Assembly (NCBI GenBank): GCA_033648345.1
Contig: GCA_033648345.1_4121.1
Direction: 5' to 3' (one strand)
DNA from: a phage
DNA: 64,000 nt
Shown here: positions 23,619 to 40,216 of the stretch, piece by piece
How the letters are laid out: each line of letters begins with the position of its first letter
Numbering within the stretch: the stretch's first letter is position 1
Notes under the pieces: generated by a model
Told to the model about the DNA's origin: nothing
What the model saw: only the letters and a program-made list of their open reading frames with translations
Databases searched by the model: none
Translations under genes and position numbers: made by a program

Positions 23619-24029
23619 ATGAGTTTAGATTTACACAATGAACTAAAATATTATTTCGATTTGGATATATCACATTTGAACCAACACGTCAATTATATGA
23701 CTAGTACTATTTGGTGGTCTGATGAGTTTGATGAACCAAAAATCCAACTTTGTGGTGATTTGTCCGTTTTGAGGTTGTATGCCCTTGATTCGGAAATGAA
23801 TATCAAGATCACATACATACCATACACAAACAAACTTATTGTAAACACCCTAAACCCAGTTACAGTATTGAAAATTTCTGATTTGGACACGATACAGTCA
23901 GATGAATCACTATTCCAACGTTCTTTGATTGATGATATGGGTGGTATTTTATATGAAGATATTGTACAATTGAAGAAGATGTATAGTGAATTGTTAGAAA
24001 TTAAAAACACAGTAATTGTGGGGAGTTGA
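23619..24029 (+). CDS. FQxS-module family protein
   Basis: C-terminal DESLFQRSLIDDMGGILYEDIVQL. Confidence 0.5.
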   Translation: MSLDLHNELKYYFDLDISHLNQHVNYMTSTIWWSDEFDEPKIQLCGDLSVLRLYALDSEMNIKITYIPYTNKLIVNTLNPVTVLKISDLDTIQSDESLFQRSLIDDMGGILYEDIVQLKKMYSELLEIKNTVIVGS

Positions 24030-24030
24030 T

Positions 24031-24435
24031 ATGGTAAGTTTACTTGATATTGATAATACCAGTCTAGTACTGGCAAAAAAAGGTGTAATTCCCAATTCTA
24101 CAAAAATTGATTATGCAGTTATTGAAACAAATATTGGAAATATCTGGTATGACTCCGAAAGGGATATTGTGATTAGCTGCGTAGACAGTGACCGTGCTGA
24201 GTGTTGTAGGGTTGGTCATGACGGGCAATTTATTTTCGAATTCCGTTACTGGAAAGATGCTAAATTCCATCATGAGCATGTTTCAATTACAGGTGTGTAT
24301 TGCACCGAAGAATCGTTCTTCATGAATAGTACTGTTAATGATTTTGGTTCAGTTACATTTGAGTACTATAAAAAAGTATACAACGTATCCAGAGAAGTAA
24401 TGCGAATCATCAGAAATGCTGAGGGTCAAGATTAA
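24031..24435 (+). CDS. FQxS-module family protein
   Basis: C-terminal TEESFFMNSTV; start set at ATG after GGGGAG RBS (ORF track begins at a TTG 15 nt upstream). Confidence 0.45.
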   Translation: MVSLLDIDNTSLVLAKKGVIPNSTKIDYAVIETNIGNIWYDSERDIVISCVDSDRAECCRVGHDGQFIFEFRYWKDAKFHHEHVSITGVYCTEESFFMNSTVNDFGSVTFEYYKKVYNVSREVMRIIRNAEGQD

Positions 24436-24811
24436 CATGACTACTATATATGACATTCTAGGTGACTTGAATAAAAATATAGATAATGATTTTGTTATTG
24501 TTGGAACTACACAAAATATAATTCATCTTCCATTGGGTACACCAGATAGGTTAATTTTTAATATATACGGAAAAACACTGACATACCTACACAATGGTAT
24601 GGTTATATTGGTACTTGATATTAAAGAAAATACAATACGATATGCATATGACTTCAACGTTTATTGGTCAAGAACCCATAGTATTGATATTGAGGAAGAT
24701 GAACTATTTCAATTGTCGTTAATCGAGAAAAATGTAATAGGAGTTACCGAAATTGGCATTGTTAAAAAAGCATTAGAATATGTAAATAGCAAATTAAATG
24801 GTGAGCTATGA
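24416..24811 (+). CDS. FQxS-module family protein
   Basis: C-terminal EDELFQLSLI. Confidence 0.5.
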   Translation: MLRVKINMTTIYDILGDLNKNIDNDFVIVGTTQNIIHLPLGTPDRLIFNIYGKTLTYLHNGMVILVLDIKENTIRYAYDFNVYWSRTHSIDIEEDELFQLSLIEKNVIGVTEIGIVKKALEYVNSKLNGEL

Positions 24812-25263
24812 TGAAAATTGATGAAATAAAAAATCATTTTGAAATTGCATTGTCTTGTAAATTTGATGGCTCTTATGTTCCTGATCCAGAAGAGATAATT
24901 AGAATTTCCACATCGTTTTCGGAAGAGTACAATGTTCTTATTGAGAAAACATATGACAGTACTGAACTCGCATTTTACAATAAGAATTCACGAACAACAA
25001 CATTTATATTATTATATAACACAACATCGGATATAATAGAAATTATAACATGTAAAACAAGCAAAGATATACATTATGAGACTATCTCAAATGTGAGTTA
25101 TTGCTCAACTGAAGAAGGATACTTTCAGGAATCTCTTGTTAAAAATTTAACAGTTAGTTATTCTGATTTAAGCACTATAATCAATTGTGTTGAAAAGCTA
25201 AATGATTTCGTTCTATCTATGTTTGATATCACAGAGCAAAACCCGAAGGTAATCAAATGCTAA
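24808..25263 (+). CDS. FQxS-module family protein
   Basis: C-terminal TEEGYFQESLV. Confidence 0.5.
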   Translation: MMKIDEIKNHFEIALSCKFDGSYVPDPEEIIRISTSFSEEYNVLIEKTYDSTELAFYNKNSRTTTFILLYNTTSDIIEIITCKTSKDIHYETISNVSYCSTEEGYFQESLVKNLTVSYSDLSTIINCVEKLNDFVLSMFDITEQNPKVIKC

Positions 25264-25712
25264 ATCCAGGACAGTTTTTTCATTTACTTGGTATTACACC
25301 TATACCGGATTTAATCAGTGAAACGAACCAATATCGTGATATAGGAATTGTATCTATGGAATACGATTCACCTGACTTTAAATGTTACGTTACATATGAT
25401 TTGGTAGCCTATGAGTCAGAAACTGAGATAAAAAAACCATCATACATTTTTGTGTTCATATATAATGATTATAGTGGTGATCTACTCAATGATGTTCATA
25501 TTGACACATTTGAAATATGTGATAATATTATATCAGATGATTCATCATGTACATTTGATTTATCAGAAAACAGTACTGAAGAGGCACTTTTTCAGTTGAG
25601 TACAGTTAGTAACACTGTACTAACTCTTGATGACATTGAGAAATTTAAAGAACAGCTTGACGCAGTACGTGAGATGTTCTATAATCATTATCCAGAAATC
25701 GAGTTCAATTAA
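25257..25712 (+). CDS. FQxS-module family protein
   Basis: C-terminal TEEALFQLSTV. Confidence 0.5.
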   Translation: MLNPGQFFHLLGITPIPDLISETNQYRDIGIVSMEYDSPDFKCYVTYDLVAYESETEIKKPSYIFVFIYNDYSGDLLNDVHIDTFEICDNIISDDSSCTFDLSENSTEEALFQLSTVSNTVLTLDDIEKFKEQLDAVREMFYNHYPEIEFN

Positions 25713-26065: not shown

Positions 26066-26317
26066 ATGAGTGAACATCGTGCAGTACTTAAAAAGATTTT
26101 AAATGAACTTGGTGATGAGTTTAATGTTACTGAAGAAGAATATCAATGTTGGAAGAAGGATTTCGAACTCCTTGCTGAGTATGATAAAGTCTTCAATATG
26201 ATTGGTGTCATTAGCCAGTACTTACTTGGTGGAGGACGTGCAAGTGCTTCAATTCTGGCATCTGCAATCATCTGTACATCACGATGGTGTGATGAAAAAA
26301 GTTTGGAAGATTTCTAA
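26066..26317 (+). CDS. hypothetical protein
   Basis: Start set at MSEHRAV after GGGGAA RBS; ORF-track start 26027 is less likely. Confidence 0.4.
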   Translation: MSEHRAVLKKILNELGDEFNVTEEEYQCWKKDFELLAEYDKVFNMIGVISQYLLGGGRASASILASAIICTSRWCDEKSLEDF

Positions 26318-26369
26318 ATAAGATGCTATAATATATCAGAGTACCTTAACAATATAAAAAGGATTTTAT

Positions 26370-28250
26370 ATGAAACCTATCCGAGTACTATCTCTTTTTA
26401 ATGGAATGAGTGTAGGATACATGGCATTAAAAGATGCTGGTATCCCTGTTGAAAAATATTATTCATCCGAAATTGACAAATTTGCTATAGCTGAATCCCA
26501 AGCTAACTTCCCCGATATAATCCAATTGGGTGATGTAACTAGATGGAGAGAATGGGATATTGAATGGGATAAGATAGATCTACTGATGGGTGGTTTTCCA
26601 TGCTTCCCAGCAGGAACTATGATAATGACAAATAAAGGTCATAAAGATATAAAAGATATAAAAATTGGTGATATGGTTCTTACACACACTGGACAGTACC
26701 AAAAAGTATTGAGTACTGGTGTTAAAAAGGCTCCCACTCGTATTATTACAGGTCAAGGTCACCTTCCAATTGAGTGTACCGATAATCATCCATTTTGGAG
26801 TAGGGAACGTCTAGCCAATAAATGGAATAATCAACGCCGAAGATATGATTCTGTGTTTTCTGAACCGCAATGGGTAAATGCTATAGATCTTACTAAACAA
26901 AGTTATATTTGTAATGTTAAAAATATTACACATAATACAGTAAGTGATAAAGATGAAAAATATTGGTATTTTGTTGGTCGTTTTATGGGTGATGGATGTG
27001 CTAGTGTATCTAATAACAAATACAGTATTACTATTGTAGATTCATTAGATAAAGTTGATGAATTGAAAAAATGTTTTGATGATTTTGGATACAAATACAC
27101 ATTAGCTATTAAAGATAATCATGTAAGATGTGATATATATAGCAAAAAGCTTTATGATGAATTAATATGTATTGGGCATAAATCACAAAACAAATGTTTA
27201 CCACCTGAAATATTCAATGAAACTATCAATAACAAAGAAGCATTTATTAAAGGATACATGGATGCAGATGGTTGTGAGGATAAACACAATAAAAAATACA
27301 AATTTACCACCACAAGTTATAAAATAGTTCTTGGTATGCAACAGTTAATCTTAGATACTTATCAACGTCATTGTACTATTAGTCAAACTGTTCCAAAAAC
27401 AAAAAAATATATAAAAAATAAGTTGGTTAATCAGCTTCCGTATTGGAATGTTCATTTTAGCTATAATAAAATTAAAAGAGATGATGTAATATATGATGAA
27501 ATTTATATATGGAATCGTGGTGTAAAAAGTAATGTACCAACCGGAGAATGGAAAACCGTTTACAATATTGAAGTTGCAGTAGATAACACATATACGGCGA
27601 ACAATATTGTAGTTCATAACTGCCAAGCGTGGTCAGTTGCAGGTAAACAGGGTGGAATAAATGATCCTCGTGGTATGTTATTCCATACAATGGTTGATAT
27701 TTACCAGCACATAAAAAGTCTCAATCCAGACTTGAAAGTACTGTTCGAGAATGTTAAAATGAAAGAAGATTTCAAGCAATACATTAATAGTGTTCTTGAG
27801 ATGACACCAGTACTGATAAATTCCCAGCATTATACGCCTCACTTCAGGCAGAGATATTACTGGTACAGTACTGATAAACTTTTTATACCACCTGCATTAT
27901 CAAATGCACCTAAACTTCAAGATATTATTGAAGATGGTTGGTACACTGACAGAACCGCTTCGTACTGTATAGATGCTAACTATTTTAAGGGTGGTGATTG
28001 TAACCAGTACTTTAATAAATCAAGAAGACAAATTGTTTTCAAAGAACCTGATATCGATAGGGATTTCCTTATTGAACATGGTAAGCGAAATGTGGACTAT
28101 CGTCATTTAACAGTACAAGAGTGTTGCATGTTGCAAGGAATTGATGTAAACTACTTCAAAGTTAGTAGTTCAACACAAGCATACAAAATGCTTGGGAATG
28201 GATGGACTATGCCAGTTATATCACACTTATTAAGAGAGATATTCTTTTGA
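26370..28250 (+). CDS. DNA (cytosine-5)-methyltransferase (Dcm-type) interrupted by an in-frame intein
   Basis: Motif I LSLFNGMSVG; extein junction reconstitutes motif IV GGFP-C-QAWSVAGK; motif VI LFENV; motif X MLGNGWTMPV. Confidence 0.85.
   Translation: MKPIRVLSLFNGMSVGYMALKDAGIPVEKYYSSEIDKFAIAESQANFPDIIQLGDVTRWREWDIEWDKIDLLMGGFPCFPAGTMIMTNKGHKDIKDIKIGDMVLTHTGQYQKVLSTGVKKAPTRIITGQGHLPIECTDNHPFWSRERLANKWNNQRRRYDSVFSEPQWVNAIDLTKQSYICNVKNITHNTVSDKDEKYWYFVGRFMGDGCASVSNNKYSITIVDSLDKVDELKKCFDDFGYKYTLAIKDNHVRCDIYSKKLYDELICIGHKSQNKCLPPEIFNETINNKEAFIKGYMDADGCEDKHNKKYKFTTTSYKIVLGMQQLILDTYQRHCTISQTVPKTKKYIKNKLVNQLPYWNVHFSYNKIKRDDVIYDEIYIWNRGVKSNVPTGEWKTVYNIEVAVDNTYTANNIVVHNCQAWSVAGKQGGINDPRGMLFHTMVDIYQHIKSLNPDLKVLFENVKMKEDFKQYINSVLEMTPVLINSQHYTPHFRQRYYWYSTDKLFIPPALSNAPKLQDIIEDGWYTDRTASYCIDANYFKGGDCNQYFNKSRRQIVFKEPDIDRDFLIEHGKRNVDYRHLTVQECCMLQGIDVNYFKVSSSTQAYKMLGNGWTMPVISHLLREIFF
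26601..27620 (+). mobile_element. intein (340 aa) with LAGLIDADG homing-endonuclease domain, inserted at the catalytic Cys of the methyltransferase
   Basis: Begins CFPAGT (block A), TDNH (block B), two LAGLIDADG-like blocks (YFVGRFMGDGCA; FIKGYMDADGCE), ends VVHN followed by +1 Cys. Confidence 0.8.
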
Positions 28251-28252
28251 AC

Positions 28253-28732
28253 ATGAAGAACTACCCCACCTATACTGAACGTGTAATGAAATTTCAACGT
28301 CAGTCATCAAAGGAAGAATTAGAATTTAATTTGTACTATCCTAATATTGGTGATGAGGTATTCTATTGTTCTCATACAAAGAATGGAACTTTACTTAAAT
28401 CTGGTAAAGGTATTATTGTTGATATGATTAGAACTTTCAAAGGTAAACTTAATGTAATGTACAAAGTACAAGATTCAAGTACTGAGTGCATTCATGAAGT
28501 GATGCATAATATACCTGCATATCCAAAGGATTTTGTTGAGCTAATATCTCGAAGGGAGAAACCTATGTTTTATTGTGGTTATGACAAACTAACCAAACAA
28601 ATTATTCCTAATACTATGGGAAAATTTAAAAGTGATGTTAAAACTGAACTTAATAAGAAATTAGGTTCATCATGGGAAACTGAAAACGAATTCATCGAAA
28701 TTCGTTTGATTGAAGTAACTATACTCGATTAA
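28253..28732 (+). CDS. hypothetical protein
   Basis: Start at ATG immediately after methyltransferase stop (MKNYPTYTE...). Confidence 0.45.
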   Translation: MKNYPTYTERVMKFQRQSSKEELEFNLYYPNIGDEVFYCSHTKNGTLLKSGKGIIVDMIRTFKGKLNVMYKVQDSSTECIHEVMHNIPAYPKDFVELISRREKPMFYCGYDKLTKQIIPNTMGKFKSDVKTELNKKLGSSWETENEFIEIRLIEVTILD

Positions 28733-28776: not shown

Positions 28777-29289
28777 ATGACAGTTCCTTATGTTAAAATT
28801 ATTAATAATATCCTTGATTCGTGGGAAGATGTTATTACTGGTAAAAAGAACCCAATGCCAGTACACGCACTAACCGGAAGACTACAATTCAGAATGTCAA
28901 ACCAAACTGAAACTTTTAATAATCATGATGTTCACATTACTATAACACCTGTACGTATTGTAATTAAAAAAAATCAAGATGATGAATTGACATTATCTAT
29001 TGGTAGTGATAAAATCATTTTAAGTAATTTATCCGAAGAAGAATTCTTTCAACGAAGTACTATCATCGACATGAAAGATTTCACATATGAATCATTGGTT
29101 GAACTCAATACACGTTTCAACGATATTCAGGAACGATTGCGACCAATCCTCCGTAAAGAAGAGGAAGCCTGGAATGAAAGTGTGAGAAAAATGCAAGAAA
29201 TGTTGAAAGAAAATATTAACAATCTGGGTAAAGCTACAATGGAATTTGGTAAATCTTTTAAACTGAACTTTTCAAAGGATCGTAAATGA
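28777..29289 (+). CDS. FQxS-module family protein
   Basis: SEEEFFQRSTI. Confidence 0.5.
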   Translation: MTVPYVKIINNILDSWEDVITGKKNPMPVHALTGRLQFRMSNQTETFNNHDVHITITPVRIVIKKNQDDELTLSIGSDKIILSNLSEEEFFQRSTIIDMKDFTYESLVELNTRFNDIQERLRPILRKEEEAWNESVRKMQEMLKENINNLGKATMEFGKSFKLNFSKDRK

Positions 29290-29741
29290 AAATTGATAAT
29301 TTGATTCATGTCTTAGGGACTTTACATAAAATATTATTACATCTTAACGAGATGAATAAACTAGGTTATAATGTCCATAATGTATTTGAACCTACATTTA
29401 AATATAACTCAATCACTGGAGATGGTAATTACATAATCGAATATACATATGAAACTGATCCAGACTTCTATCCTCTTACGTTGCGAATTTATCCAACAAG
29501 TCCGATAGGCATTCACGATATATCATCAATTTCACTTGATCCAGATGGTGAAACGAGTATTGAATACAATAATGATTCAAAACCAGAATTTTACATTGAT
29601 GATATTAAAAAGTTGTTCAATGATGAATATGTTTTCCAACAAAGTACTGTGCATGATGTTGGTAGTACTAATGGGCAATTTTGGAATACATGTTATTATC
29701 ATATGATTGAAATTTGTAAATTACTAAAAGGTGTTGAATAA
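29286..29741 (+). CDS. FQxS-module family protein
   Basis: DEYVFQQSTV. Confidence 0.5.
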   Translation: MKIDNLIHVLGTLHKILLHLNEMNKLGYNVHNVFEPTFKYNSITGDGNYIIEYTYETDPDFYPLTLRIYPTSPIGIHDISSISLDPDGETSIEYNNDSKPEFYIDDIKKLFNDEYVFQQSTVHDVGSTNGQFWNTCYYHMIEICKLLKGVE

Positions 29742-30124
29742 TGAAATACTGCATTGAAGTACATTACACTACAGGTGATACTGAAAATTGTTATGACGTT
29801 CTTAATACAATTGATATTCAATGGTCTTCTAAAGAGGAAGCAGTTGCTGCTTTACAGTGCCTAAAAGAGCATTGGGTGTTTTATATGAAGCAAGATAATT
29901 GCTATACAAAAGAACACGAAACCATCGTCGAAAATGCTAAACAAAAAGAGTGGTTTGACCCAATATCACCAGCATATTCATTCTTGGTTAAAGTTGGTGA
30001 TGTGACAGTTCCATTACGAACACCGTGGAACGGCTACTTTGAAACTCTTCATAATGCACGAGTTGTCGCTGTTGATAACCCTGAACAAATCGATTTCGAT
30101 TCATTGGACTGGAAAAAACTATGA
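29741..30124 (+). CDS. hypothetical protein
   Basis: 127-aa ORF. Confidence 0.45.
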   Translation: MKYCIEVHYTTGDTENCYDVLNTIDIQWSSKEEAVAALQCLKEHWVFYMKQDNCYTKEHETIVENAKQKEWFDPISPAYSFLVKVGDVTVPLRTPWNGYFETLHNARVVAVDNPEQIDFDSLDWKKL

Positions 30125-30564
30125 CAGTACTGCACCGATTGAAGAAGGTTAAGCATCCAGTTGTATATGAGGACTGGAAACGACAGAAGTTGCTGGGTGA
30201 TTTTTATTACCCAAAATCTAAAGTTCTTGCGAATTCAAGATGTACATATTGCACACATAATGATAAAGATACAGTATTTGTTGAAATGGGTTTCCATCCA
30301 TCGAACACAATGTTCACTACTAACCAAACGTTTTACAAATTTCATATACAAAAAGATTCATTTACTGTTATGATTATAAAACATTTAGTTGAAGATCTGG
30401 CATTCAGTGAAGAACGAGTACCTTTATCATTAGTGGATATTCCTTATAATAATTTAGAGGAAATGTACTTCCAACAGTTGACAGTACAAGAAAACTTTGG
30501 TATGATAGGACTTCAAGAGTTAGAGATGATTAAGCAAATTCGTGATATCTACTTTAAGGAGTAA
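30121..30564 (+). CDS. FQxS-module family protein
   Basis: EEMYFQQLTV. Confidence 0.5.
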   Translation: MTVLHRLKKVKHPVVYEDWKRQKLLGDFYYPKSKVLANSRCTYCTHNDKDTVFVEMGFHPSNTMFTTNQTFYKFHIQKDSFTVMIIKHLVEDLAFSEERVPLSLVDIPYNNLEEMYFQQLTVQENFGMIGLQELEMIKQIRDIYFKE

Positions 30565-31097
30565 CTATGCCAGTACGTAACAGTACTTCACGCTTTACGC
30601 TTCAACAGAAAGCAGATCTTTTGAATATGGCAAACAAAGATTCTAATTTTCACTATCTAGTACTCGGTGGTTCAGTTGAAAAGATTGACCTACGTGAGTG
30701 TATGAAATAACAAAAAGGGGACTAAAATGAGTCTACGTGAATCATGGGAACAATTTAAAGAAGAGATTGGTTATCGTGGTGTCAAAATCGAACCAATCAA
30801 TCGCACCGAAAGCATCAAAGCTAGTACTAATGGCACTACCTATGATCGTTATGATGAAAAGTATGGTTTACATTCTAAACCAAAGGATACTGAGTAATGG
30901 TGTATACTAATATTTTTACTGGTATTATGCGTAAGTTTGTTAATGGTACTGGATATGTATCCAATGACAACGGTAGTACATGGGTTAAAAATAATACGTC
31001 CGAATCTTTAGTGAAAAGTCTTCCGTATTATAAAGCTTGACACATGAAAATGGAGTATGTATAATACTCCTATATTAATCAAATGAGGATATACGAA

Positions 31098-31670
31098 ATG
31101 GCTGGTGTTGATAAAATTTGTGAATTCAGTGGCGATTATGAAGGTTACGAGATGTACAAGTCCAAGCGTAATCACATTCAAGTACTGTCAAAGTACCGTA
31201 AAGAATTCCGAGGCCACAAAGCAACATTGTATGTTTTTGAGAATGGATATTCTGAAGTTTTCACAAGTGGTGGGTATAGTACAGCTAACATGGCACATAT
31301 CAACCCAAACCCAACTGAAGATGATTGGAATAGTGGTAACGCTTTTCGTATTTCAATTTTGAATAAAATGAATCGTTACGACCGTTATTGTACATTCTTT
31401 GAAAATATTTCAGAATACAAGCAAGCATTAAAGAAATATAATCAACGCTTACTAATGAATTATGATTACATTCTTCATGTTCCTACTGTTCCAGGTCAGG
31501 TTAATGGTCTGTATACGAACAGTACACATGATTTAACTGCGGTGAAGCGTCGCCTCAAACGTATGTTGGGTTGTGGTAATTTAACAATCAAGGTTATGCG
31601 TAATGAATCAATGTATAACTTTTTAAATGTACTACACTACACATTGAAGGATAATAATGGAAACGATTAA
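31098..31670 (+). CDS. hypothetical protein
   Basis: Start at ATG after GAGGA RBS and TGtATAAT -10 at about 31056. Confidence 0.45.
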   Translation: MAGVDKICEFSGDYEGYEMYKSKRNHIQVLSKYRKEFRGHKATLYVFENGYSEVFTSGGYSTANMAHINPNPTEDDWNSGNAFRISILNKMNRYDRYCTFFENISEYKQALKKYNQRLLMNYDYILHVPTVPGQVNGLYTNSTHDLTAVKRRLKRMLGCGNLTIKVMRNESMYNFLNVLHYTLKDNNGND

Positions 31671-31854
31671 GTTTATGTTTGAGGTGTTTGTTGCATTCAT
31701 CTTATGTGCTGTATCTATTGCTATTGCTTTAATCCCAGTAATCGTTTACCAAGTTAATGGTGGTACAGACCCAACAGTTGATCTGTTTCTTCGTTGCGTG
31801 GGATTCTGCATATGGTTGGCGATGTTTATGTACTATATGCATCGTGAGGATTGA
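31657..31854 (+). CDS. small hypothetical membrane protein
   Basis: 65 aa, two hydrophobic helices. Confidence 0.35.
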   Translation: METIKFMFEVFVAFILCAVSIAIALIPVIVYQVNGGTDPTVDLFLRCVGFCIWLAMFMYYMHRED

Positions 31855-32687
31855 TTATGTCATTGGAAAAAGTAATTATTTCTGAATTCCGAAAGTACAT
31901 CATTGATTGTGATAGAGATACCCAGCGTAAGTTCAATGAGTATCTTGACAAATATCCATATTTGATGTTTAATCCATTTGAAACTCAATCCGATGTTAAT
32001 CTTGGATTTTACATTGGGTTTACACAACGAATTCTACAACAATATGAGATGAAACAGCCAGAGGTTTGGGTAGAAACTGATTCGAATGAGACGAATGTTT
32101 TTTATCTGTACTCTTATTATGCGGAAATTGTTAGTTCAATGACGCTAGAAGGGTATCTATTCGTCAAAACATCTGATATTGAAAAAATATACATAGAACC
32201 TGTATCTTTGGATATGGTTGCCCAGCTTCCAACAGTTCAATATTTGGATGCAAATGAGTTGACATATTCGGTGTTTGAGTACCTTAACCGAGACGATTTA
32301 ACTCAAGAAATTGAGAATATGGTTTCAAAATATACCACAACTCTTATATCTAATGGTTCACTTAGAATAGAACTGATTTACGACGATACTAGTACTAATG
32401 CAGTACGAGGAACTCGAATTGGAAAAGTTACTATACGTGTTGTCCACAATGATGTAGTACTTGGTTATATTTCGAAACGTGGTCATGACTTGTGTTTGAT
32501 TAACACATATGTTATTGAACGAAAAGAATGGAACGATTTAATGCAAAAAATCGTAGACGGAAGTGGAATTCGTGATATAATGTGTAATGAGGTAGTGACA
32601 ATGAATCCTGACATTGACTGTGATGTATATTTCCCAGTTCCTGGATTTACTCTACGTAATTTTGGTACATTAAAGGGTACAAAATGA
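31851..32687 (+). CDS. hypothetical protein
   Basis: 278-aa ORF. Confidence 0.5.
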   Translation: MIMSLEKVIISEFRKYIIDCDRDTQRKFNEYLDKYPYLMFNPFETQSDVNLGFYIGFTQRILQQYEMKQPEVWVETDSNETNVFYLYSYYAEIVSSMTLEGYLFVKTSDIEKIYIEPVSLDMVAQLPTVQYLDANELTYSVFEYLNRDDLTQEIENMVSKYTTTLISNGSLRIELIYDDTSTNAVRGTRIGKVTIRVVHNDVVLGYISKRGHDLCLINTYVIERKEWNDLMQKIVDGSGIRDIMCNEVVTMNPDIDCDVYFPVPGFTLRNFGTLKGTK

Positions 32688-32974
32688 AAATTTTAGAAGT
32701 CTTACTTGAAAAGGATGCATCCGGCACTCTTTATGTTGGTAATGAGTTCAGTCCTGATCCAATTGATATGATGCAGCGTATTCAAACACTGACCCAATCA
32801 ATTTCAGTTAAACAACCTTTCCTAAAAGAATTGGAAATTCACTGCGATAAAGATATGGAACAACATGATAATGTTATTTCTGATATCAAAAGTCTATTGA
32901 CAAAGAATGGATATGTGGAGTATAATCCTTCTATCGTAATCGTTATCCCTGACTTTATGAAAGGAACATTGTAA
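32684..32974 (+). CDS. hypothetical protein
   Basis: 96-aa ORF. Confidence 0.45.
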   Translation: MKILEVLLEKDASGTLYVGNEFSPDPIDMMQRIQTLTQSISVKQPFLKELEIHCDKDMEQHDNVISDIKSLLTKNGYVEYNPSIVIVIPDFMKGTL

Positions 32975-33243
32975 TGACTAAAGAAGAAATGAAATCTCGC
33001 CTAAGCGAACTTAAGAAAGAACGAAAACTAGTCCGTTTGGACTGGGACATTCTTAACAAAAAAGATGAGCAATCATATGCTAACTGGAGTTCCGATAAAG
33101 TTCGCAATGACCGTTCCAAAGAAGACGCTAAACAGTTTATGGCATTGACCAAACGTTTATCTTCACTGAATAGTGAAATTACAGGTCTTCAAAAGGAAAT
33201 TATTTCAATTCTTCAAGTGGAGATCAACTCACTGTATGAATAA
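32974..33243 (+). CDS. hypothetical protein
   Basis: 89 aa, predicted coiled coil. Confidence 0.45.
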   Translation: MTKEEMKSRLSELKKERKLVRLDWDILNKKDEQSYANWSSDKVRNDRSKEDAKQFMALTKRLSSLNSEITGLQKEIISILQVEINSLYE

Positions 33244-33532
33244 ACATGAAGTGATTCATTTTGATGGTAAGATTTATGTACCAAACAATGATAGTACTGA
33301 ATCTTATTATCTAATCAATGCAATTATGTCAGAAACACAAACATGTTGCCGTCAGCGTCCAGGTGAGTATGAGTTCAGTCAGACCATTGGTTATTATCGT
33401 TATACTGAACTTGATAAATTTACAATCGATTCTAAAAAAGTTATTGACGTTCTCACGAAGAACGGATATAATGAATCCGAATCAAACGAAACAGAGTTAC
33501 CAGTTGTGAAATTTGTTCTAAAAAATAATTAA
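33236..33532 (+). CDS. hypothetical protein
   Basis: Start at MNKHEV overlapping upstream stop. Confidence 0.4.
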   Translation: MNKHEVIHFDGKIYVPNNDSTESYYLINAIMSETQTCCRQRPGEYEFSQTIGYYRYTELDKFTIDSKKVIDVLTKNGYNESESNETELPVVKFVLKNN

Positions 33533-33649
33533 TTTTTGGGACAACACTGAAAAGCATGATATAATGTATATTATCGGCAGATGTAAAAATGCAAACCATT
33601 CCTCAATGATGAGGGTTTTTCATAAAAAAGAAATAAAAGGGTATTAAAA

Positions 33650-33859
33650 ATGGCTAAAGAAACTAACGCACAAGTACTAGATATCACCGACTTCGACCGC
33701 ACTGTGAACTACATTCAGTTCCAGATTCATCAAGCTGAAGAAGCTCTCGCAGTATTCCACGGTACTGGTGCAAGGCCAATCCGTTTTGCTCATCTAATTG
33801 CATGGAAGAAAAGTCTACAAGAAGAACTTTCTGAACTGCGTAAAGCAAACCGTAAGTAA
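33650..33859 (+). CDS. hypothetical protein
   Basis: 69-aa ORF. Confidence 0.4.
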   Translation: MAKETNAQVLDITDFDRTVNYIQFQIHQAEEALAVFHGTGARPIRFAHLIAWKKSLQEELSELRKANRK

Positions 33860-33865
33860 TTGATT

Positions 33866-33894
33866 TCCTGCCTCATCAATGTTGATGGGGCTTT
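33866..33894 (+). terminator. rho-independent terminator
   Basis: gcctcatcaa-tgt-tgatggggc hairpin then TTTTT. Confidence 0.55.
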
Positions 33895-33923
33895 TTAATA
33901 AAATACAAACTGAGGATATATTA

Positions 33924-34430
33924 ATGAGTGTTGAATATTGGTTTTTGTTTATATGTCTTGGTACACTAGTACTGATTACATTGGGCTTAATCTTCAATAC
34001 GGTAATCAGTGGTAGTAATTACTTCAAGTCATTTCAACTTCTAATGTCAGCAATGCAGTACAGTGACGAGGCAGAAGAAACCACTACGTTGATTTTGAAT
34101 AAACTTGAAGCTAACTTACTGGTTGCTAAAATTTCTTCGTGTAATACAAATATTGTATTTTATGCATCACCCGTGGACATTAATGGGTACGAAATGAGTT
34201 ACCAGCCAGCCGTTGCTGAAATTTTTATTGGTTCTAAGTATTATGCATATGGATATATCCGAAAGTATTATACTGAAGCAAAAGCCGAGCTAACAAAGAA
34301 ACGACCGTCAATTAAGACATTAAAGCGTATCATCGCACTAGAAAAGAAACTACGAGGTGATGTGACAAAAAATGATTCACCCACTGTAGTAAATACAAAG
34401 AAAAAAAATAACGTAGTGGAGTTGGATTAA
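33924..34430 (+). CDS. hypothetical membrane protein
   Basis: Start at ATG after GAGGA RBS; N-terminal TM helix. Confidence 0.45.
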   Translation: MSVEYWFLFICLGTLVLITLGLIFNTVISGSNYFKSFQLLMSAMQYSDEAEETTTLILNKLEANLLVAKISSCNTNIVFYASPVDINGYEMSYQPAVAEIFIGSKYYAYGYIRKYYTEAKAELTKKRPSIKTLKRIIALEKKLRGDVTKNDSPTVVNTKKKNNVVELD

Positions 34431-34735
34431 TGGACGCAGATAAATCAAACAGTATTCTTATTGATGTACAAACGAAGTTATTAGATGTTATGGAAATCAT
34501 CAAAGATTTACCACAAGGATATCAGTTTAAAGTTCGTGAAATGTTATCTTGTGCAGAAACGGTTGTGTCTATGTACAATGATGTGCAGCATGGAATTATC
34601 CCTGAAATTCTTCAAGATGGTCTAAATATTAACACAAAGATTCCAGCACAAGAGCCTGAAGAGGTTGTTCAGCCTGAACCAGAACCTCCTTTACGTAAAG
34701 TACTGGATCTATCTGGTATCAAAATTAACATCTAA
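34430..34735 (+). CDS. hypothetical protein
   Basis: 101-aa ORF. Confidence 0.4.
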   Translation: MDADKSNSILIDVQTKLLDVMEIIKDLPQGYQFKVREMLSCAETVVSMYNDVQHGIIPEILQDGLNINTKIPAQEPEEVVQPEPEPPLRKVLDLSGIKINI

Positions 34736-34915
34736 AATACATTCAATAGGAGAAGTAATGAGTAATCAAAAAATTGACTTAGTAGTAAAACTTCAAGAGA
34801 TTCAAGCACTAGCTAAAGGACTTGATGAAAAACGTGCAGCAGTTGATTCACTGTGTGCAACAATTCTGACTGTTTTTGCAGATTACGAAAAGAAATCTGA
34901 TTAAACATTACTTTA

Positions 34916-34944
34916 TACCCAGTCTAGTACTGGGTATTTTTTTT
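34916..34944 (+). terminator. rho-independent terminator
   Basis: tacccagt-ctagt-actgggta hairpin then T8. Confidence 0.65.
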
Positions 34945-34955
34945 AAGGAAATAAA

Positions 34956-35348
34956 ATGACTGAATCTGAACTACGTGAAATGATAGATTTCATTTATGAA
35001 ATGGTGCAAGATAAAAATAACATTAATACAATTACTACTGGACCAAGACAAATTGGTAATCAAATGACATATTCGTTGTCCTTATGGTTACACCCGAACT
35101 TCAAGGTTGATTGTTTGCATTTTCGTCCTGATATTGATGCTTATTATTTTGTAAATCATGATGCATTAATGAAACCAAATAAGCGTCCAGTTGATGATGC
35201 CTTTGTGACGCACCCATTTTATCTGGCTGATTCCGAAGAAGATGAGTTTCAAAAGAACACAACGTTAAGCCCAGGTGAAATTTGCATCCCTTACACACTA
35301 AAAGATAAAATGATTTACATCACAGAAGTTATGAAAACATGCTGGTAA
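34956..35348 (+). CDS. hypothetical protein
   Basis: 130-aa ORF. Confidence 0.45.
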   Translation: MTESELREMIDFIYEMVQDKNNINTITTGPRQIGNQMTYSLSLWLHPNFKVDCLHFRPDIDAYYFVNHDALMKPNKRPVDDAFVTHPFYLADSEEDEFQKNTTLSPGEICIPYTLKDKMIYITEVMKTCW

Positions 35349-35396
35349 GTGCAATGAAACTCTGATATAATACAAACAATGATAATAGGAGGATAT

Positions 35397-35615
35397 ATGA
35401 AATTTATTAATTTTGATATTTCTAAGGCCAAAGAATTATTTGTAAGAAATGCAGTTTATGATATCATGTTACATAACGGTACTGTACAAGAAGATGTTGT
35501 ATTGTTTTCGTTTGATGGTGAAAATCTCGAAACTATATATAAATTCAGCAACTTAGATGGTGACTTTTGGGAAACCAGTGCTGTTAAAATGTATAGAATT
35601 AAAAAGGAGCATTAA
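35397..35615 (+). CDS. hypothetical protein
   Basis: Start at ATG after AGGAGG RBS. Confidence 0.4.
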   Translation: MKFINFDISKAKELFVRNAVYDIMLHNGTVQEDVVLFSFDGENLETIYKFSNLDGDFWETSAVKMYRIKKEH

Positions 35616-35616
35616 T

Positions 35617-36105
35617 ATGCCAATTCGTGGTGTACCAGAACCATTAATGGAAGTTATTAAGCATGTTCGCATTGGAGATCGAGAAGTTAATCTTCGCCGT
35701 AATAACATTTTTTACTTTAAAACTTCAGAAATGAGTTCTGTACAGATTGTCATTGGTACATCTATTAAGATTACTCGTGTACTTGATGGTAGTACTGACT
35801 TCGTTGAATATAATGTACTTACTAATAAAGTAACGCATATATATAAATGGAGTGGGTATAAAACTATTAAGTATGAATTTGACTTAGCTAGAACTGAAGA
35901 AGAACGATTTATGCTGAGTACTATCAATCCAGCAAACTATCCTGACCTTGATGCATTTTTGCTAATTTTAAAATTGTATAATGAAGCAAATCAGAAAGCC
36001 AAAGATTATGATAGAATCATGTATGAACGCCGAAAAGAACGTGCACAAAAAAGTTATGATCTGTATGATAGCCCATACGTGAAATATAGTAAGGGGTCGA
36101 AATGA
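35617..36105 (+). CDS. FQxS-module family protein (variant)
   Basis: TEEERFMLSTI; start at ATG after AAGGAG RBS. Confidence 0.45.
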   Translation: MPIRGVPEPLMEVIKHVRIGDREVNLRRNNIFYFKTSEMSSVQIVIGTSIKITRVLDGSTDFVEYNVLTNKVTHIYKWSGYKTIKYEFDLARTEEERFMLSTINPANYPDLDAFLLILKLYNEANQKAKDYDRIMYERRKERAQKSYDLYDSPYVKYSKGSK

Positions 36106-36506
36106 ATAAAGAAGTTCAAATTATCATAACTCCACCTATACAAAGTCTGGATGTATCCATTAGTGATTTTTTGGAAAAATACTATGAATGGTTTAATGAA
36201 GATTCAGTAATTTATAACCATTCATTACCTGATGGTTTCGTTGAGCTTATTGAATTAAATGCAAAATCACTATACTTCTGTGTTGAATACAATGATTATA
36301 TGACAGATGAAGTATATCGTTTTCGTTGTACATTGTATCCTAACCATTTTTCCATTGGTTATAAAGACTATCAGTACTGCACCACAAACTATAGTGTAGA
36401 GGAAGAATTTCAGTACAATTTACTTTATCCAGATTTAGATTATACGATTGCAGTGCTGTTGACTAAAATCATGGATTTTTATAAAGATAAATATAATGCA
36501 GCCTAA
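36102..36506 (+). CDS. FQxS-module family protein (divergent)
   Basis: EEEFQYNLL. Confidence 0.4.
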   Translation: MNKEVQIIITPPIQSLDVSISDFLEKYYEWFNEDSVIYNHSLPDGFVELIELNAKSLYFCVEYNDYMTDEVYRFRCTLYPNHFSIGYKDYQYCTTNYSVEEEFQYNLLYPDLDYTIAVLLTKIMDFYKDKYNAA

Positions 36507-36681
36507 GACATTTGATGAGTGGTTTAATCTACACTATAATATAAATGCAGCAGATATATACTATTTTAAGCTTGAATTGTATATATCATTGCGTAACCCA
36601 ATTGAGTACTATAACAACATTATCAATTGTGATGATTTTGGTACATATTTTAGTATAGCAGTCATGGACAAAATAAGATGA
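36496..36681 (+). CDS. hypothetical protein
   Basis: 61-aa ORF. Confidence 0.3.
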   Translation: MQPKTFDEWFNLHYNINAADIYYFKLELYISLRNPIEYYNNIINCDDFGTYFSIAVMDKIR

Positions 36682-36860
36682 CACACAAAGAATGGTTAGA
36701 TGAACTAAAATTTAAACATAATCCTTTTGGTTTTGGTATACGCCAAGGTCATTATGATGTGTTAAAAGATAAACAACTTTTCAAATCATTGGTACTTAAT
36801 GAGGATAGTAATCACTGGTACATCTATGAGCTTGCAATTAGAGACAAAAAAATTGACTAG
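36678..36860 (+). CDS. MTHEEW-family small protein
   Basis: MTHKEWLDEL...GHYDVLKDK...IYELAIRD; paralog of 37406..37576. Confidence 0.45.
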   Translation: MTHKEWLDELKFKHNPFGFGIRQGHYDVLKDKQLFKSLVLNEDSNHWYIYELAIRDKKID

Positions 36861-36905
36861 TACTGATATATATGCTATTCTTTTGTTTTAAGCAGGAGAA
36901 CAATA

Positions 36906-37409
36906 ATGCTCATTACGCATGTACCGGAAAGTATTACTGAGATTTTAAGTAAAATTAATGTTAATGAATTTGAACGAACAGTTCGAAAACAAGGTACTTA
37001 TCACTATAAGCACAAAGATGGTGAACATCAAATAAGCTTAGATCAGAATTATCAAACTCTAACAATTAAAATGGTTACTCGCTGGAATTTTATTCGTAAA
37101 GATACTATTATCTGTGATTTTGGTAAAAGACTACTTAGAAAATGTTTCTCTGAAACAAATGGTATCTATCCAAACCCGAATAGAATTTTCACATATCAAT
37201 ACATCACAGATGAAGATGTACATTTTCAAGAGAGTTTGGTATGTGATAATAAGTACTTTCCCGCATTTTCAGATAATTTGAAGTTAAAAGAACTATATAA
37301 CTATTTCTTAAACGACAATATTCTGTGGGATGAAGAATTAAAACAACGACAGATAGAACGTGAAAAGAAAAAAGTCTGGACTGGTTCACATTGGATGCAA
37401 CGTAAATGA
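36906..37409 (+). CDS. FQxS-module family protein
   Basis: DEDVHFQESLV. Confidence 0.5.
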   Translation: MLITHVPESITEILSKINVNEFERTVRKQGTYHYKHKDGEHQISLDQNYQTLTIKMVTRWNFIRKDTIICDFGKRLLRKCFSETNGIYPNPNRIFTYQYITDEDVHFQESLVCDNKYFPAFSDNLKLKELYNYFLNDNILWDEELKQRQIEREKKKVWTGSHWMQRK

Positions 37410-37576
37410 CACATGAAGAATGGATGTCTATTATGAAAGAACGATATGATCTGTTTGGGAATGGATTTCGTGATGGTCATTACGATATTTTACGAGACAA
37501 ACATCAGTTCGATTTATATGTACTAGATGAGGATGGAAATCGATGGTTCATATATGAGCTTGCATTTAGGGATTAG
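37406..37576 (+). CDS. MTHEEW-family small protein
   Basis: ORF below the track's length cut-off, found by hand: MTHEEWMSIMKERYDLFGNGFRDGHYDILRDK...IYELAFRD. Confidence 0.4.
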   Translation: MTHEEWMSIMKERYDLFGNGFRDGHYDILRDKHQFDLYVLDEDGNRWFIYELAFRD

Positions 37577-37586
37577 AAGATATATT

Positions 37587-37935
<349 letters not shown>

Positions 37936-37948
37936 CGAGGAATCCAAA

Positions 37949-38146
37949 GTGACTAAAGCAGAACTTGTAGCATTATTGGAATCATATCCCGATGATGCAT
38001 GTATTGAAGTTGTTCATAATGCGAGACATTTTGACATTGAAGATGTAGTACGTTATAATGACAAAGGTGTACTCATCATGGAACTATGTATTGGTGAAAT
38101 GAAAACTGTACCCGAATCAGAAAAACGTAAAAATAGTAAACCGTAA
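37949..38146 (+). CDS. hypothetical protein
   Basis: 65-aa ORF. Confidence 0.4.
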   Translation: MTKAELVALLESYPDDACIEVVHNARHFDIEDVVRYNDKGVLIMELCIGEMKTVPESEKRKNSKP

Positions 38147-38156
38147 GGAAAATAAA

Positions 38157-38375
38157 ATGGAATCTACTCTATTAGAAGTTATTAACTCATTAAACGCTGG
38201 CGACAATGTTCAAGTACTCCTTCAGGGATATCGTGTAAAAGGTTCAGTAGTTTTAGTTAATGATACCACTGTTGTTGTAACTGAAACTAACCCGTTTGAC
38301 AGTAATGAACTTGCTAATATCCATATTGATATTAAAAGTATTATTGGTGTTGGTGTAACTAAACCACAAGAATAA
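38157..38375 (+). CDS. hypothetical protein
   Basis: 72-aa ORF. Confidence 0.4.
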   Translation: MESTLLEVINSLNAGDNVQVLLQGYRVKGSVVLVNDTTVVVTETNPFDSNELANIHIDIKSIIGVGVTKPQE

Positions 38376-38396
38376 CAATTGTTATTGGGGATTACT

Positions 38397-38669
38397 ATGC
38401 ATTTTGAAAAATTCAATACAAATCGTAACACACGCATTGACGTTCTTTATGAAACACAAGACTCAATAAGCATTCGTACACGTAGTGGTGATGTATATCA
38501 TGACTGTACTATTGGTTGGGAACAGGGAAGAACACGTAGTGCAGAATTCGATAACTATCGCTTCTACCAAGGGGACACCACAATCTGGCCTGAACACGTA
38601 GAAGATATTGCGATTGAAGATGAACATAAAGATGAATTTATAAAATTTAATCCCGAAACCGAATCATAA
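38397..38669 (+). CDS. hypothetical protein
   Basis: Start at ATG after GGGGA RBS. Confidence 0.4.
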   Translation: MHFEKFNTNRNTRIDVLYETQDSISIRTRSGDVYHDCTIGWEQGRTRSAEFDNYRFYQGDTTIWPEHVEDIAIEDEHKDEFIKFNPETES

Positions 38670-38725
38670 ATATTGGGACAGACCAAAAAGATGTGATATA
38701 ATTATTAACATGATAACAAAAATAC

Positions 38726-39130
38726 ATGGAACGTAAAATGTGGGGAAACGAATATAAATCAAAACAAGGAAATATTGGAGTTGCTCGTGCAATAGATTAC
38801 TATGTCACGAATGGTTATTCAGTGTCGATACCGATGAATGACACACAATCATATGACTTGGTTGTTGATGATAATATTAAATTGTATAGAGTATCCGTAA
38901 AAACAACATCATACAAAGCACCATCTGGAAATTATAATGTCCAACTAAAAAATAGTGGTGGTTCTAGTGGTAAGAGTGTTATACGAAACTTTGATAAAAC
39001 ATCGTGTGACATACTGTTTGTGTTGTGTGATAATAATGACATATATATCATCCCAATTGATGACATTGATGCACATTCAGCATTTACATTAACTGAAGAA
39101 CGTAAGAAATATATTAGAAAATTATATTAA
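38726..39130 (+). CDS. hypothetical protein, possible small PD-(D/E)xK-fold nuclease
   Basis: YDLVVDD ... LYRVSVKTT resembles the D...(E/S)xK core of Hjc/YraN-like nucleases; weak. Confidence 0.35.
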   Translation: MERKMWGNEYKSKQGNIGVARAIDYYVTNGYSVSIPMNDTQSYDLVVDDNIKLYRVSVKTTSYKAPSGNYNVQLKNSGGSSGKSVIRNFDKTSCDILFVLCDNNDIYIIPIDDIDAHSAFTLTEERKKYIRKLY

Positions 39131-39136
39131 AAATAT

Positions 39137-39222
<86 letters not shown>

Positions 39223-39239
39223 CAATTAAAGGTTAAACC

Positions 39240-39400
<161 letters not shown>

Positions 39401-39404
<4 letters not shown>

Positions 39405-39561
39405 CACATGAAGAATGGATGAATGACATTAATTTTAGATATTCGGGTATCGGTAAATGGCTAAAGTATCATTGGGAATTCATTTCAGAGCCACATCTGT
39501 ATGATAAACTTATCAACGATCCAGCATATGAAATGTACTTAATTGAACTACTGGTACGAAT

Positions 39562-39565
<4 letters not shown>
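39401..39565 (+). CDS. MTHEEW-family small protein (tandem copy 2)
   Basis: MTHEEWMNDINFRYSGIGKWLKYHWEFISEP...; ATGA overlap with copy 1. Confidence 0.4.
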
Positions 39566-39733
<168 letters not shown>

Positions 39734-39734
39734 G

Positions 39735-40188
<454 letters not shown>

Positions 40189-40216
40189 GTATCTTAACAA
40201 CAGAAGGTATATTGAA

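Follow-up and report, generated by a model that had tools for sequence, protein, structure and literature searches.

A cytosine C5 methyltransferase gene of a jumbo coliphage carries a predicted mobile intein within its catalytic motif

The DNA analysed here (the window, 64,000 nt) comes from an Asteriusvirus jumbo coliphage, a phage of the 350-kb size class. Positions 26370..28250 hold one open reading frame, on the + strand like every feature described below, which encodes 626 aa plus a stop (ORF list, Pfam). The coordinates given in an earlier note on this DNA were exact, and the 1878-nt frame is uninterrupted. The whole product matches the superfamily PF00145 (E 5.9e-29; 102 bits against a cut-off of 22), which bears out the note's description of a phage-encoded C5-cytosine DNA methyltransferase. 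The match is broken into three stretches, and an identical 626-aa protein at NCBI (ELW0836358.1) is named only 'DNA cytosine methyltransferase'. By its sequence, the gene is a phage-encoded C5 DNA methyltransferase carrying an unannotated intein, and it is the intein that divides the PF00145 match in this way. In the 52-nt gap upstream of the gene lies a candidate sigma-70-type promoter (26303..26332), with TTGGAA, an 18-nt spacer and a TG-extended TATAAT. This is the best + strand consensus match in the region, but as such matches are not above chance there it is only a candidate. The TATAAT and the bases around it are invariant in 8/8 aligned phages. In the same alignment a Shine-Dalgarno-like AGGA read from the sequence 6 nt before the ATG (26360..26363) is also invariant, and the UE-S1 record annotates a ribosome-binding site at the equivalent position.

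The N-extein (aa 1-77; 26370..26600) aligns without gaps to residues 1-77 of 121Q gp91. It contains motif I (LSLFNGMSVG, 26388-26417, with LFNGMSVG at aa 9-16) and ends, at aa 77, with GGFP (26589-26600), the opening half of motif IV. The C-extein (aa 418-626; 27621..28247) opens with the second half of motif IV, CQAWS, and continues with motif VI (ENV, aa 460-462, read as FENV within 27741-27755), motif VIII (FRQRYYW with its R-x-R, 27843-27863), the target-recognition loop (CIDANYFKGG, 27966-27995), the motif IX region (28101-28139) and motif X (LGNGWTMPV, 28191-28217, with GNGW at aa 609-612). Motifs I, VI and X are thus present as first reported, whereas motif IV, listed with them, is split: its Pro-Cys dipeptide is not contiguous in the precursor, P77 and C418 being 340 residues apart, and GGFPCQAWS becomes contiguous only after predicted splicing. 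The 340-aa intein within this catalytic motif, immediately before the catalytic cysteine, is the dominant feature of the ORF and was absent from the earlier reading. Cys418 serves both as the nucleophile at splicing position +1 and as the cysteine of motif IV that carries out catalysis. In silico removal of aa 78-417 leaves a 286-aa enzyme, consisting of the catalytic domain only, that is gap-free against 121Q gp91; with the intein inside motif IV, the ORF is over twice as long as its orthologues. The orthologues in 121Q (gp91), PBECO4, BF17 and RaK2 (gp194) have the same length and the same neighbour genes as the spliced product, which is 87% identical to 121Q gp91 and 64% to RaK2 gp194, but unlike the window's allele they carry no intein. 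Among 50 homologues, F10 and G12 of motif I are invariant, as are C78, E120, N121, V122, R153, R155, C193, A196, Y198, K200, G269 and N270 (spliced numbering).

The insertion itself (26601..27620) has the features of a class-1-type intein, running from Cys1 (CFPAGT) to a terminal His-Asn (VVHN), and its exact deletion restores the 286-aa orthologue. It matches a Hint domain (PF13403, 34.3 bits; cut-off 28.4) and a LAGLIDADG endonuclease (PF14528, 40.5 bits; cut-off 22.5). All canonical splicing residues are present (C1, T60xxH63, H339-N340 and the +1 Cys) and are invariant in 8 homologous inteins, taken from methyltransferases of unrelated phages. Block B (CTDNHPF, 26775..26795) holds T60 and H63 of the TxxH; blocks F and G (27555..27620; TVYNIEVAVDNTYTANNIVVHN) end in V338, H339 and N340, all three invariant, which supply the penultimate His and the terminal Asn. 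Both LAGLIDADG Asp-Gly pairs are likewise invariant in this set. In motif 1 (YFVGRFMGDG, 26967..26996; catalytic Asp D131) the conserved positions are G126, D131 and G132, and in motif 2 (FIKGYMDADG, 27243..27272; catalytic Asp D223) they are G218, Y219, D223 and G224; a lysine upstream of motif 2, K198, is invariant too. Sequence comparison with the PDB gave only weak matches (E 3e-4 to the gp41-1 mini-intein), and a fold search was therefore needed. The AF2 model of the intein (pLDDT 90.3), in which residues 119-131 form a helix followed by a strand, has its best Foldseek matches in PI-SceI (E 7e-19), the TliVMA intein (TM 0.73) and PI-PfuI, and its endonuclease domain matches I-DmoI. A free-standing or intron-encoded endonuclease was rejected in view of the continuous frame and by Hint blocks on both sides of the endonuclease. 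On sequence and predicted fold, the insertion is a class-1-type intein, predicted to be self-splicing, with a putative LAGLIDADG homing endonuclease.

With PI-SceI (yeast VMA1), TliVMA and PI-PfuI the predicted intein shares a Hint domain with an inserted two-motif LAGLIDADG endonuclease (E 7e-19 to 5e-12, TM up to 0.73), although it is only 10-16% identical to them, resides in a different host protein and, at 340 aa, is shorter than the 454-aa PI-SceI. Its homologues are found in Mannheimia phage 587AP2, Lactobacillus phage Nyseid, Propionibacterium phage B22, the P1-like Dmt and EBPR siphovirus 2. They are inserted at exactly the same point, between the Pro of motif IV and the catalytic Cys, which is the +1 residue, and they have the same Cys1...His-Asn class-1-type organisation, a LAGLIDADG endonuclease and a total intein length of 312-376 aa. 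The junction xP/CF.AGT...VVHN/CQ (slashes at the splice points) recurs in C5 methyltransferases of Mannheimia, Lactobacillus, Propionibacterium, P1-like and EBPR phages, and in about 26/31 database homologues of the intein. The window's intein is nevertheless only 25-29% identical to those phage inteins by alignment (24-31% by tblastn), and its host enzyme differs in being of another methyltransferase subfamily, DNMT3-like, in a 350-kb jumbo coliphage. Phage C5 methyltransferase inteins have also been listed for actinobacteriophages, with IPR001525 hosts (bioRxiv 10.1101/2025.01.02.630785).

DNMT3A/B, not E. coli Dcm, are the proteins that the spliced enzyme most resembles in both sequence and predicted fold. 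Among solved structures DNMT3A/3B give the best sequence matches (E 2e-24, residues 2-281 aligned), and the top 50 Foldseek matches of the AF2 model of the joined exteins (pLDDT 92.7) are all DNMT3 (DNMT3A/B/C; TM about 0.8). The likeness to the DNMT3A/3B catalytic domain (TM 0.78-0.80, 26-28% identity, the same size of about 285 aa) extends to a short recognition loop with a common N-x-x-K-x-G pattern. In contrast to DNMT3, the phage enzyme has no PWWP or ADD regulatory (chromatin-reading) domains, its motif IV reads PCQ where DNMT3A/3B have PCN, and in the alignment an Asp occupies the position of DNMT3A Arg836, which we take to be the guanine-reading residue. Reading the specificity from the recognition loop was attempted through this alignment and proved uninformative: the loops are homologous, yet the phage enzyme has Asp in place of the key Arg. 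The label 'Dcm-type' used previously holds at the superfamily level only, PF00145 being shared with E. coli Dcm (CCWGG). Against the full-length DNMT3A alignment, two chains deposited as 'Cytosine-specific methyltransferase', presumably Dcm-like, align over only about 40 C-terminal residues (E 1.6e-4 to 2.6e-4). The precursor, which was the sequence scored, reaches 94.8 bits against NCBIfam TIGR00675, under its cut-off of 100.65, and CCWGG is neither enriched nor avoided. A DNMT2-type tRNA methyltransferase was rejected, as those matches are far weaker (E 1e-8, N-terminal half only).

The reading that we favour, with a probability of roughly 0.85, is of a 286-aa orphan C5 methyltransferase with a CpG-context target, interrupted between Pro77 and the catalytic Cys by a mobile self-splicing intein that was imported by homing. 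Judging from the intact motifs, the 626-aa precursor would be inactive as a methyltransferase because its active-site loop is split; with the intein inside the catalytic motif, the primary product should therefore be unable to act as a methyltransferase before splicing. Cys78 would form a thioester, Cys418 would attack it and Asn417 would cyclise, rejoining GGFP to CQAWS; the products would be the active enzyme (about 33 kDa) and the free intein (about 39 kDa). In co-infections, as the comparative data suggest, the LAGLIDADG endonuclease would cut intein-less alleles at the site coding for GGFPCQAWS. Repair of the cut allele would then copy the intein together with flanking extein DNA, which may be how the allele entered this phage. 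The least certain step is the last, in which the spliced DNMT3-like enzyme would methylate a CpG-context cytosine on phage DNA, presumably as a protection from host restriction.

The earlier note called the specificity unknown, and in experimental terms we agree; indirect evidence makes CpG the probable target of the spliced enzyme. RaK2, whose orthologue is gp194, is stated in one passage of its report to have methylated CpG by bisulfite ('data not shown'; PMC3622015). Among 6-7 close relatives of the window, derived C>T changes amount to 4.2% at CpG vs 2.2% elsewhere (OR 1.98, p 2e-6), with changes polarised by the minor allele and no control phage clade lacking a C5 methyltransferase. The excess was reproduced in two regions and persists when only synonymous third positions are counted (OR 1.93, p 1.5e-4), and a smaller effect of a 5′-G is seen at non-CpG cytosines (C>T 3.4% vs about 2%). 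The observed/expected ratio is 0.78 for CG and 1.26 for TG/CA. There is strong avoidance of the CpG-containing sites GCGC and CGCG (0 and 6 observed vs 58 expected), which counts against blanket CpG methylation purely for protection, since this would not need avoidance. Avoidance of McrBC was considered as the cause of this depletion and rejected: ACGT, which would also be an RmC site if methylated, is not depleted.

A minority possibility that we take seriously is that the enzyme recognises a longer site, or another one with a C in it, and not all CpG; examples would be part of the CpG sites (such as CCG/CGG) or a motif with GC. The C>T excess is uneven (CCG 5.8%, GCG 5.6%, TCG 4.3%, ACG 3.2%) and GCA is also high at 4.1%; the Asp at the Arg836 equivalent points the same way, as does the 4-6 bp recognition of most prokaryotic C5 methyltransferases. 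On the other hand, all four NCG contexts exceed the 5′-matched non-CpG rates, and the recognition loop is short and DNMT3-like. Somewhat more doubtful is the strongest form of the CpG proposal, namely that a minimal DNMT3-like methyltransferase modifies CpG across jumbo-phage genomes and that in intein-bearing phages it is gated post-translationally by splicing. As the catalytic cysteine is also the splicing nucleophile, methylation could on that proposal start only after excision of the intein. If it were true, the RaK2/121Q phage family would hold a close viral relative of the catalytic domain of the animal de novo methyltransferases, and the CpG lead would point to a very small DNMT3-like CpG methyltransferase, its 286-aa product a compact alternative to M.SssI.

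The distribution of the intein bears on its mobility. This intein is present in 2/37 phage records covering the locus, two other intein alleles occupy the same site in 3 further records, and the remaining records are empty; BF17, 121Q and about 30 other Asteriusvirus records do not have the intein segment. Two of the 3 further carriers, JNE01 and A4, were found only through a search with the intein protein. The multi-genome alignment was built from GenBank phage records instead of IMG/VR, where a scan for close relatives returned only RaK2 and hundreds of distant homologues (36-63% identical) and no Asteriusvirus contigs. Over positions 1-25000 the window is 99.3% identical to the intein-less BF17, and the 500-nt flanks of the gene are 97% and 99.8% identical to it. 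The methyltransferase allele, however, matches those of UE-S1 and ph0011 at 98-100% identity, while over 1-25000 their clade is only 82.5% identical to the window. The imported tract has the intein at its centre and ends at the gene borders, and this pattern of a BF17-like backbone with a UE-S1/ph0011-like allele fits homing with co-conversion, though recombination without endonuclease cleavage could also have brought in the allele. The intein-less site in BF17 (about 48 bp) reads GATTTACTCATGGGAGGATTCCCA to the left of the insertion point and TGTCAAGCCTGGTCTGTTGCTGGT to the right. A divergent patch (GGSPCQGLS...) has replaced the homing site in some intein-less alleles (P0001, P0004). The three intein alleles share one insertion site, and one of them is recombinant.

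It could be argued that the intein still splices while its endonuclease is dead, at a late stage of the homing cycle, and that it is now inherited only vertically or by ordinary homologous recombination. The intein occurs in a minority of sequenced Asteriusvirus genomes, and these genomes are heavily mosaic, as this explanation would have it. We nevertheless regard it as improbable. The two catalytic Asp-Gly pairs are intact, as is the conserved Lys, and the endonuclease domain alone has a dN/dS of 0.09 (0.08 for the whole intein). The centring of the imported tract on the intein, within the gene borders, also argues against a dead endonuclease, as does the comparison of TH47 with JNE01, whose inteins are 94.4% identical (dS 0.25), a divergence far below that of their exteins (83.4% identical, dS 1.10).

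The earlier note was right that AGTACT is over-represented: 171 sites are found vs 18.1 +/- 4.7 expected from dinucleotide-preserving shuffles, an excess of about 9-fold. Its speculation that the enzyme is connected with this palindrome found no support. We consider it very unlikely that the lone cytosine of AGTACT or GTAC is methylated by this enzyme and that such methylation is connected to the site excess. In favour of the idea, this phage and RaK2, each with an orthologue of the enzyme, show 7-9 fold and 7-fold enrichment of the hexamer, respectively, and the target-recognition region is not assignable by homology. Against this, the passage of the RaK2 report concerns methylated CpG, and AGTACT contains no CpG; the recognition loop of the enzyme, itself DNMT3-like, is short; and the C of GTAC has 3/508 C>T changes vs about 11 expected, below background and the opposite of 5mC hypermutability. 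The homologue in phi92 is 50% identical and its DNA has zero AGTACT in 29 kb, although the phi92 recognition region, with some 40 additional residues, may be different. Nor would methylating a site by itself account for its enrichment. Conservation of the hexamer across 7 close genomes had no power to decide the matter (5/38 varied vs 19% background, p 0.24-0.40), and a literature search returned nothing relevant on AGTACT over-representation in phages.

That the insertion inactivated the methyltransferase and left a decaying pseudogene kept only to carry a selfish element is scarcely credible: the active site is physically split and in Mannheimia phage 587AP2 the frame is broken after the homologous intein, but here the 1878-nt frame is open, the splicing residues and methyltransferase motifs are all intact, and extein dN/dS is 0.06-0.14, comparisons between intein-bearing alleles included.

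The favoured reading of an intein-interrupted enzyme leaves the current understanding of inteins and methyltransferases unchanged. The locus itself shows the stages of intein homing in jumbo coliphages side by side in nature, with empty sites, three intein alleles, import and patched sites. As the relevant phages are all in culture, this cycle is directly testable. Literature searches found no published description of this intein; the GenBank records examined carry no intein annotation, and the UE-S1 and phAPEC6 papers do not mention it. What has been deposited several times as a plain 626-aa 'DNA cytosine methyltransferase', and counted as such in the UE-S1 genome paper, would in fact be a 286-aa enzyme and a 340-aa selfish element.

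A single forward-strand ORF at 26370..28250 encodes 626 aa, and its motifs are indeed those of a methyltransferase, as a profile search matches it to the C5 DNA methylase family (PF00145, E 5.9e-29). The match falls in three stretches, and proteins of this family are expected to be ~290 aa long. The same ORF also matches LAGLIDADG_3 (PF14528, 40.5 bits) and Hint_2 (PF13403, 34.3 bits), both above the curated cut-offs. On sequence grounds, the core of the finding is a putative intein with a LAGLIDADG homing endonuclease, unannotated and apparently recently mobile, which splits the catalytic motif of an orphan methyltransferase. The earlier note had recognised the methyltransferase and missed the intein; its observation is confirmed, and its interpretation supported, only in part. 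As far as sequence and modelling suggest, the host enzyme is otherwise ordinary: DNMT3-like, an orphan, and encoded by a jumbo coliphage.

The junctions read ...LLMGGFP/CFPAGTMIMT... and ...NNIVVHN/CQAWSVAGK..., placing the intein at nt 26601–27620 of the same strand (residues 78–417). In silico removal of these residues rejoins motif IV as GGFPCQAWS and restores a protein of 286 aa, the length of gp91 from Escherichia phage 121Q, to which it aligns with zero gaps. The insert is predicted to be a class-1 intein with every hallmark present: Cys1, T60-x-x-H63 in block B, a terminal His339-Asn340, and a +1 Cys that is also the catalytic cysteine of the methyltransferase. Two LAGLIDADG motifs with catalytic Asp-Gly pairs (D131/G132 and D223/G224) and a conserved Lys198 are found within it, and all of these splicing and endonuclease residues are invariant in an alignment of eight homologous inteins from unrelated phages. 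In a fold search, the intein as modelled with AlphaFold2 (pLDDT 90.3) matched PI-SceI (E 7e-19), the TliVMA intein (TM 0.73), PI-PfuI and PI-TkoII, while its central domain matched I-DmoI. The intein is compositionally foreign, as its GC content is lower than that of the exteins (29.8% vs 36.1%) and it has fewer AGTACT sites (0 or 1 per kb in six intein copies vs 2–5 per 858 nt of extein).

Inteins in C5 methyltransferases are a known class, of which this element is a further example. It is not a new kind, since homologous inteins (24–31% identity) share the same insertion site, xP/C...HN/CQ, in several other C5 methyltransferases, namely those of Mannheimia phage 587AP2, Lactobacillus phage Nyseid, Propionibacterium phage B22 and EBPR siphovirus 2 and the P1-like Dmt, and since C-5 DNA methylases are among the known intein hosts in a survey of actinobacteriophages (bioRxiv 10.1101/2025.01.02.630785). 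PF00145 proteins host ~26 of the 31 intein homologues obtained in a search among 5.8 billion proteins. In Mannheimia phage vB_MhS_587AP2 (locus L004, 364–2200), the frame is broken ~20 codons past the intein and the gene is annotated as two CDS, a sign of a disrupted methyltransferase or else of a sequencing error. The dmt gene of P1-like phage OP279344.1 (locus L007, 601–1623) carries a 341-aa homologous intein in motif IV of the Dmt C5 domain, and the P1-like RCS47 and Ro157c2YLVW have one at the same motif IV position.

The window belongs to the 121Q/PBECO4 group of Asteriusvirus jumbo coliphages, where the intein is sporadic and allelic. The same intein is found in UE-S1 and ph0011 (99.7–100% aa identity), a second allele of 343 aa (~54% aa identity) in TH47 and JNE01, and in A4 a mosaic whose Hint ends are close to the first allele and whose endonuclease domain is close to the second. 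The site is empty in ~30 other phage records covering the locus, including 121Q, PBECO4, BF17 and Sharanji. An identical 626-aa protein is already in NCBI, labelled only ‘DNA cytosine methyltransferase’, as is the gene in the records of UE-S1 and ph0011; no intein is mentioned in the papers on UE-S1 and phAPEC6. The recombinant A4 intein (locus L013, 2101–3138) is 81–83% identical in nucleotides to that of the window across its N- and C-terminal splicing regions, and the intergenic region just ahead of the A4 methyltransferase gene has an insertion of ~250 nt.

Window positions 1–25000 are 99.3% identical to the intein-less BF17 vs 82.5% to ph0011, and the gene's 500-nt flanks match BF17 at 97% and 99.8% identity vs UE-S1 at 87–91%. 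The gene itself is 98–100% identical to UE-S1/ph0011 (1019 of 1020 nt in the intein), whereas identity to BF17 is 82% for the N-extein and 77% for the opening 180 nt of the C-extein. These affinities indicate that an intein-bearing allele from the diverged UE-S1/ph0011 clade replaced the resident one, the exchange ending at the gene borders, a pattern predicted by gene conversion that an endonuclease cut sets off and that carries flanking DNA along. An independent sign of mobility comes from TH47 and JNE01, whose inteins are 94.4% identical (dS 0.25) and whose exteins are 83.4% identical (dS 1.10). The dN/dS ratios (exteins 0.06–0.14, intein 0.08, endonuclease domain alone 0.09) point to persisting purifying selection on both exteins and intein. 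Two intein-less database proteins of 286 aa (P0001 and P0004), on contigs of ~350 kb, are close to the window's exteins except at residues ~69–139, a RaK2-like patch (GGSPCQGLS...) spanning the homing site; they may be endonuclease-resistant alleles, or products of intein loss by recombination. The backbone is also 99.3% identical to WPEC3 and EC.P1, and window positions 30001–39000 are covered only patchily by the closest relatives.

Once spliced, the enzyme is one of a very large, mostly phage-borne family of small proteins (270–340 aa). Every RaK2-like jumbo phage has an orthologue (Erwinia phage Kaldavass 74%, Pectobacterium phage CBB 73%, RaK2 64%), and remoter relatives are found in phi92-like phages (50%) and ICP1 (45%). 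Among solved structures, the spliced sequence is nearest to the catalytic domains of DNMT3A/3B (E 2e-24, residues 2–281), followed by M.HhaI (6e-17, N-terminal half only); two chains deposited only as ‘Cytosine-specific methyltransferase’, which we take to be Dcm-like, are far more distant (1e-4 over 40 residues). For the AlphaFold2 model of the spliced protein (pLDDT 92.7, pTM 0.90), the top 50 Foldseek matches are exclusively DNMT3A/B/C (TM 0.78–0.80). The label ‘Dcm-type’ is therefore right at the superfamily level only. The enzyme resembles DNMT3A/B in fold and in its short recognition loop, but the position that matches DNMT3A Arg836 holds Asp, a caveat to the CpG reading that follows.

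Three indirect lines converge on CpG, at present the best guess for the target. We estimate a chance of roughly 0.6 that CpG is part of the target, while methylation of all CpG sites seems rather unlikely. One line is the DNMT3-like fold with its short recognition loop. Another is the RaK2 genome paper, according to which the DNA of that phage, whose gp194 is the 64% orthologue, contains methylated CpG by bisulfite analysis (data not shown there), and only restriction enzymes unaffected by Dam, Dcm, CpG or EcoKI methylation cut it (PMC3622015). For the third, substitutions were compared in window segments 1–25000 and 39001–55000, each with 5–6 close relatives (37 kb of usable sites, 1020 derived changes). 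With changes polarised by minor allele, among relatives only and with no control clade free of C5 methyltransferase, derived C>T affected 4.2% of CpG cytosines vs 2.2% of other cytosines (OR 1.98, p 2e-6). The excess appears in each segment (OR 2.05 and 1.87), in all four NCG contexts, and among synonymous third-position transitions only (OR 1.93, p 1.5e-4); non-CpG cytosines show a weaker 5′-G effect. In the genome, CG observed/expected is 0.78 and TG/CA 1.26.

The over-represented AGTACT palindrome, which the earlier note had speculatively linked to the enzyme, is real, with 171 sites (205, 305, 1632 ... 63893) vs 18.1 ± 4.7 expected in the 64-kb window, and with a 7.8-fold excess over the mononucleotide expectation. 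Nothing ties it to this methyltransferase: AGTACT contains no CpG, the C of GTAC has 3 C>T changes in 508 sites vs ~11 expected, and phi92, with its 50%-identical homologue, has no AGTACT in 29 kb. The three reading frames and non-coding DNA each hold sites in proportion to the part of the window that they make up, and C is preferred at −1 and G at +6 (CAGTACTG). GTAC overall is 2.3-fold enriched, and GGTACC and CGTACG are absent from the window. The AGTACT enrichment is shared by Klebsiella phage RaK2, a distant relative (locus L014, 146714–187598; 99 sites vs 13.9 expected, 7-fold); a mechanism for it was sought and none was found. Other palindromes are very strongly avoided by this phage, which also encodes two methyltransferases: GCGC does not occur in the window (58 expected, or ~30 with non-palindromic GC-only tetramers as the baseline) or in 41 kb of RaK2 (24 expected), CGCG occurs 6 times in the window vs 58 expected, and ~20 palindromic hexamers with at least four G/C have zero occurrences.

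Around the methyltransferase gene, 8 of 12 small ORFs (130–170 aa; window 23619–25712 and 28777–30564) share a C-terminal motif, (F/Y)FQxS(T/L)(V/I), at residues ~90–117. Their pairwise BLAST similarity is weak and each matches its own PHROG of unannotated function; by sequence they look like a diverged paralogue family. The longest ORF of the next gene downstream (28202..28732) would share 49 nt (28202–28250) with the 3′ end of the methyltransferase gene, but its true start is probably near 28247–28253, since later starts are annotated in 121Q (at a stop-codon overlap) and BF17 (just past the stop codon).
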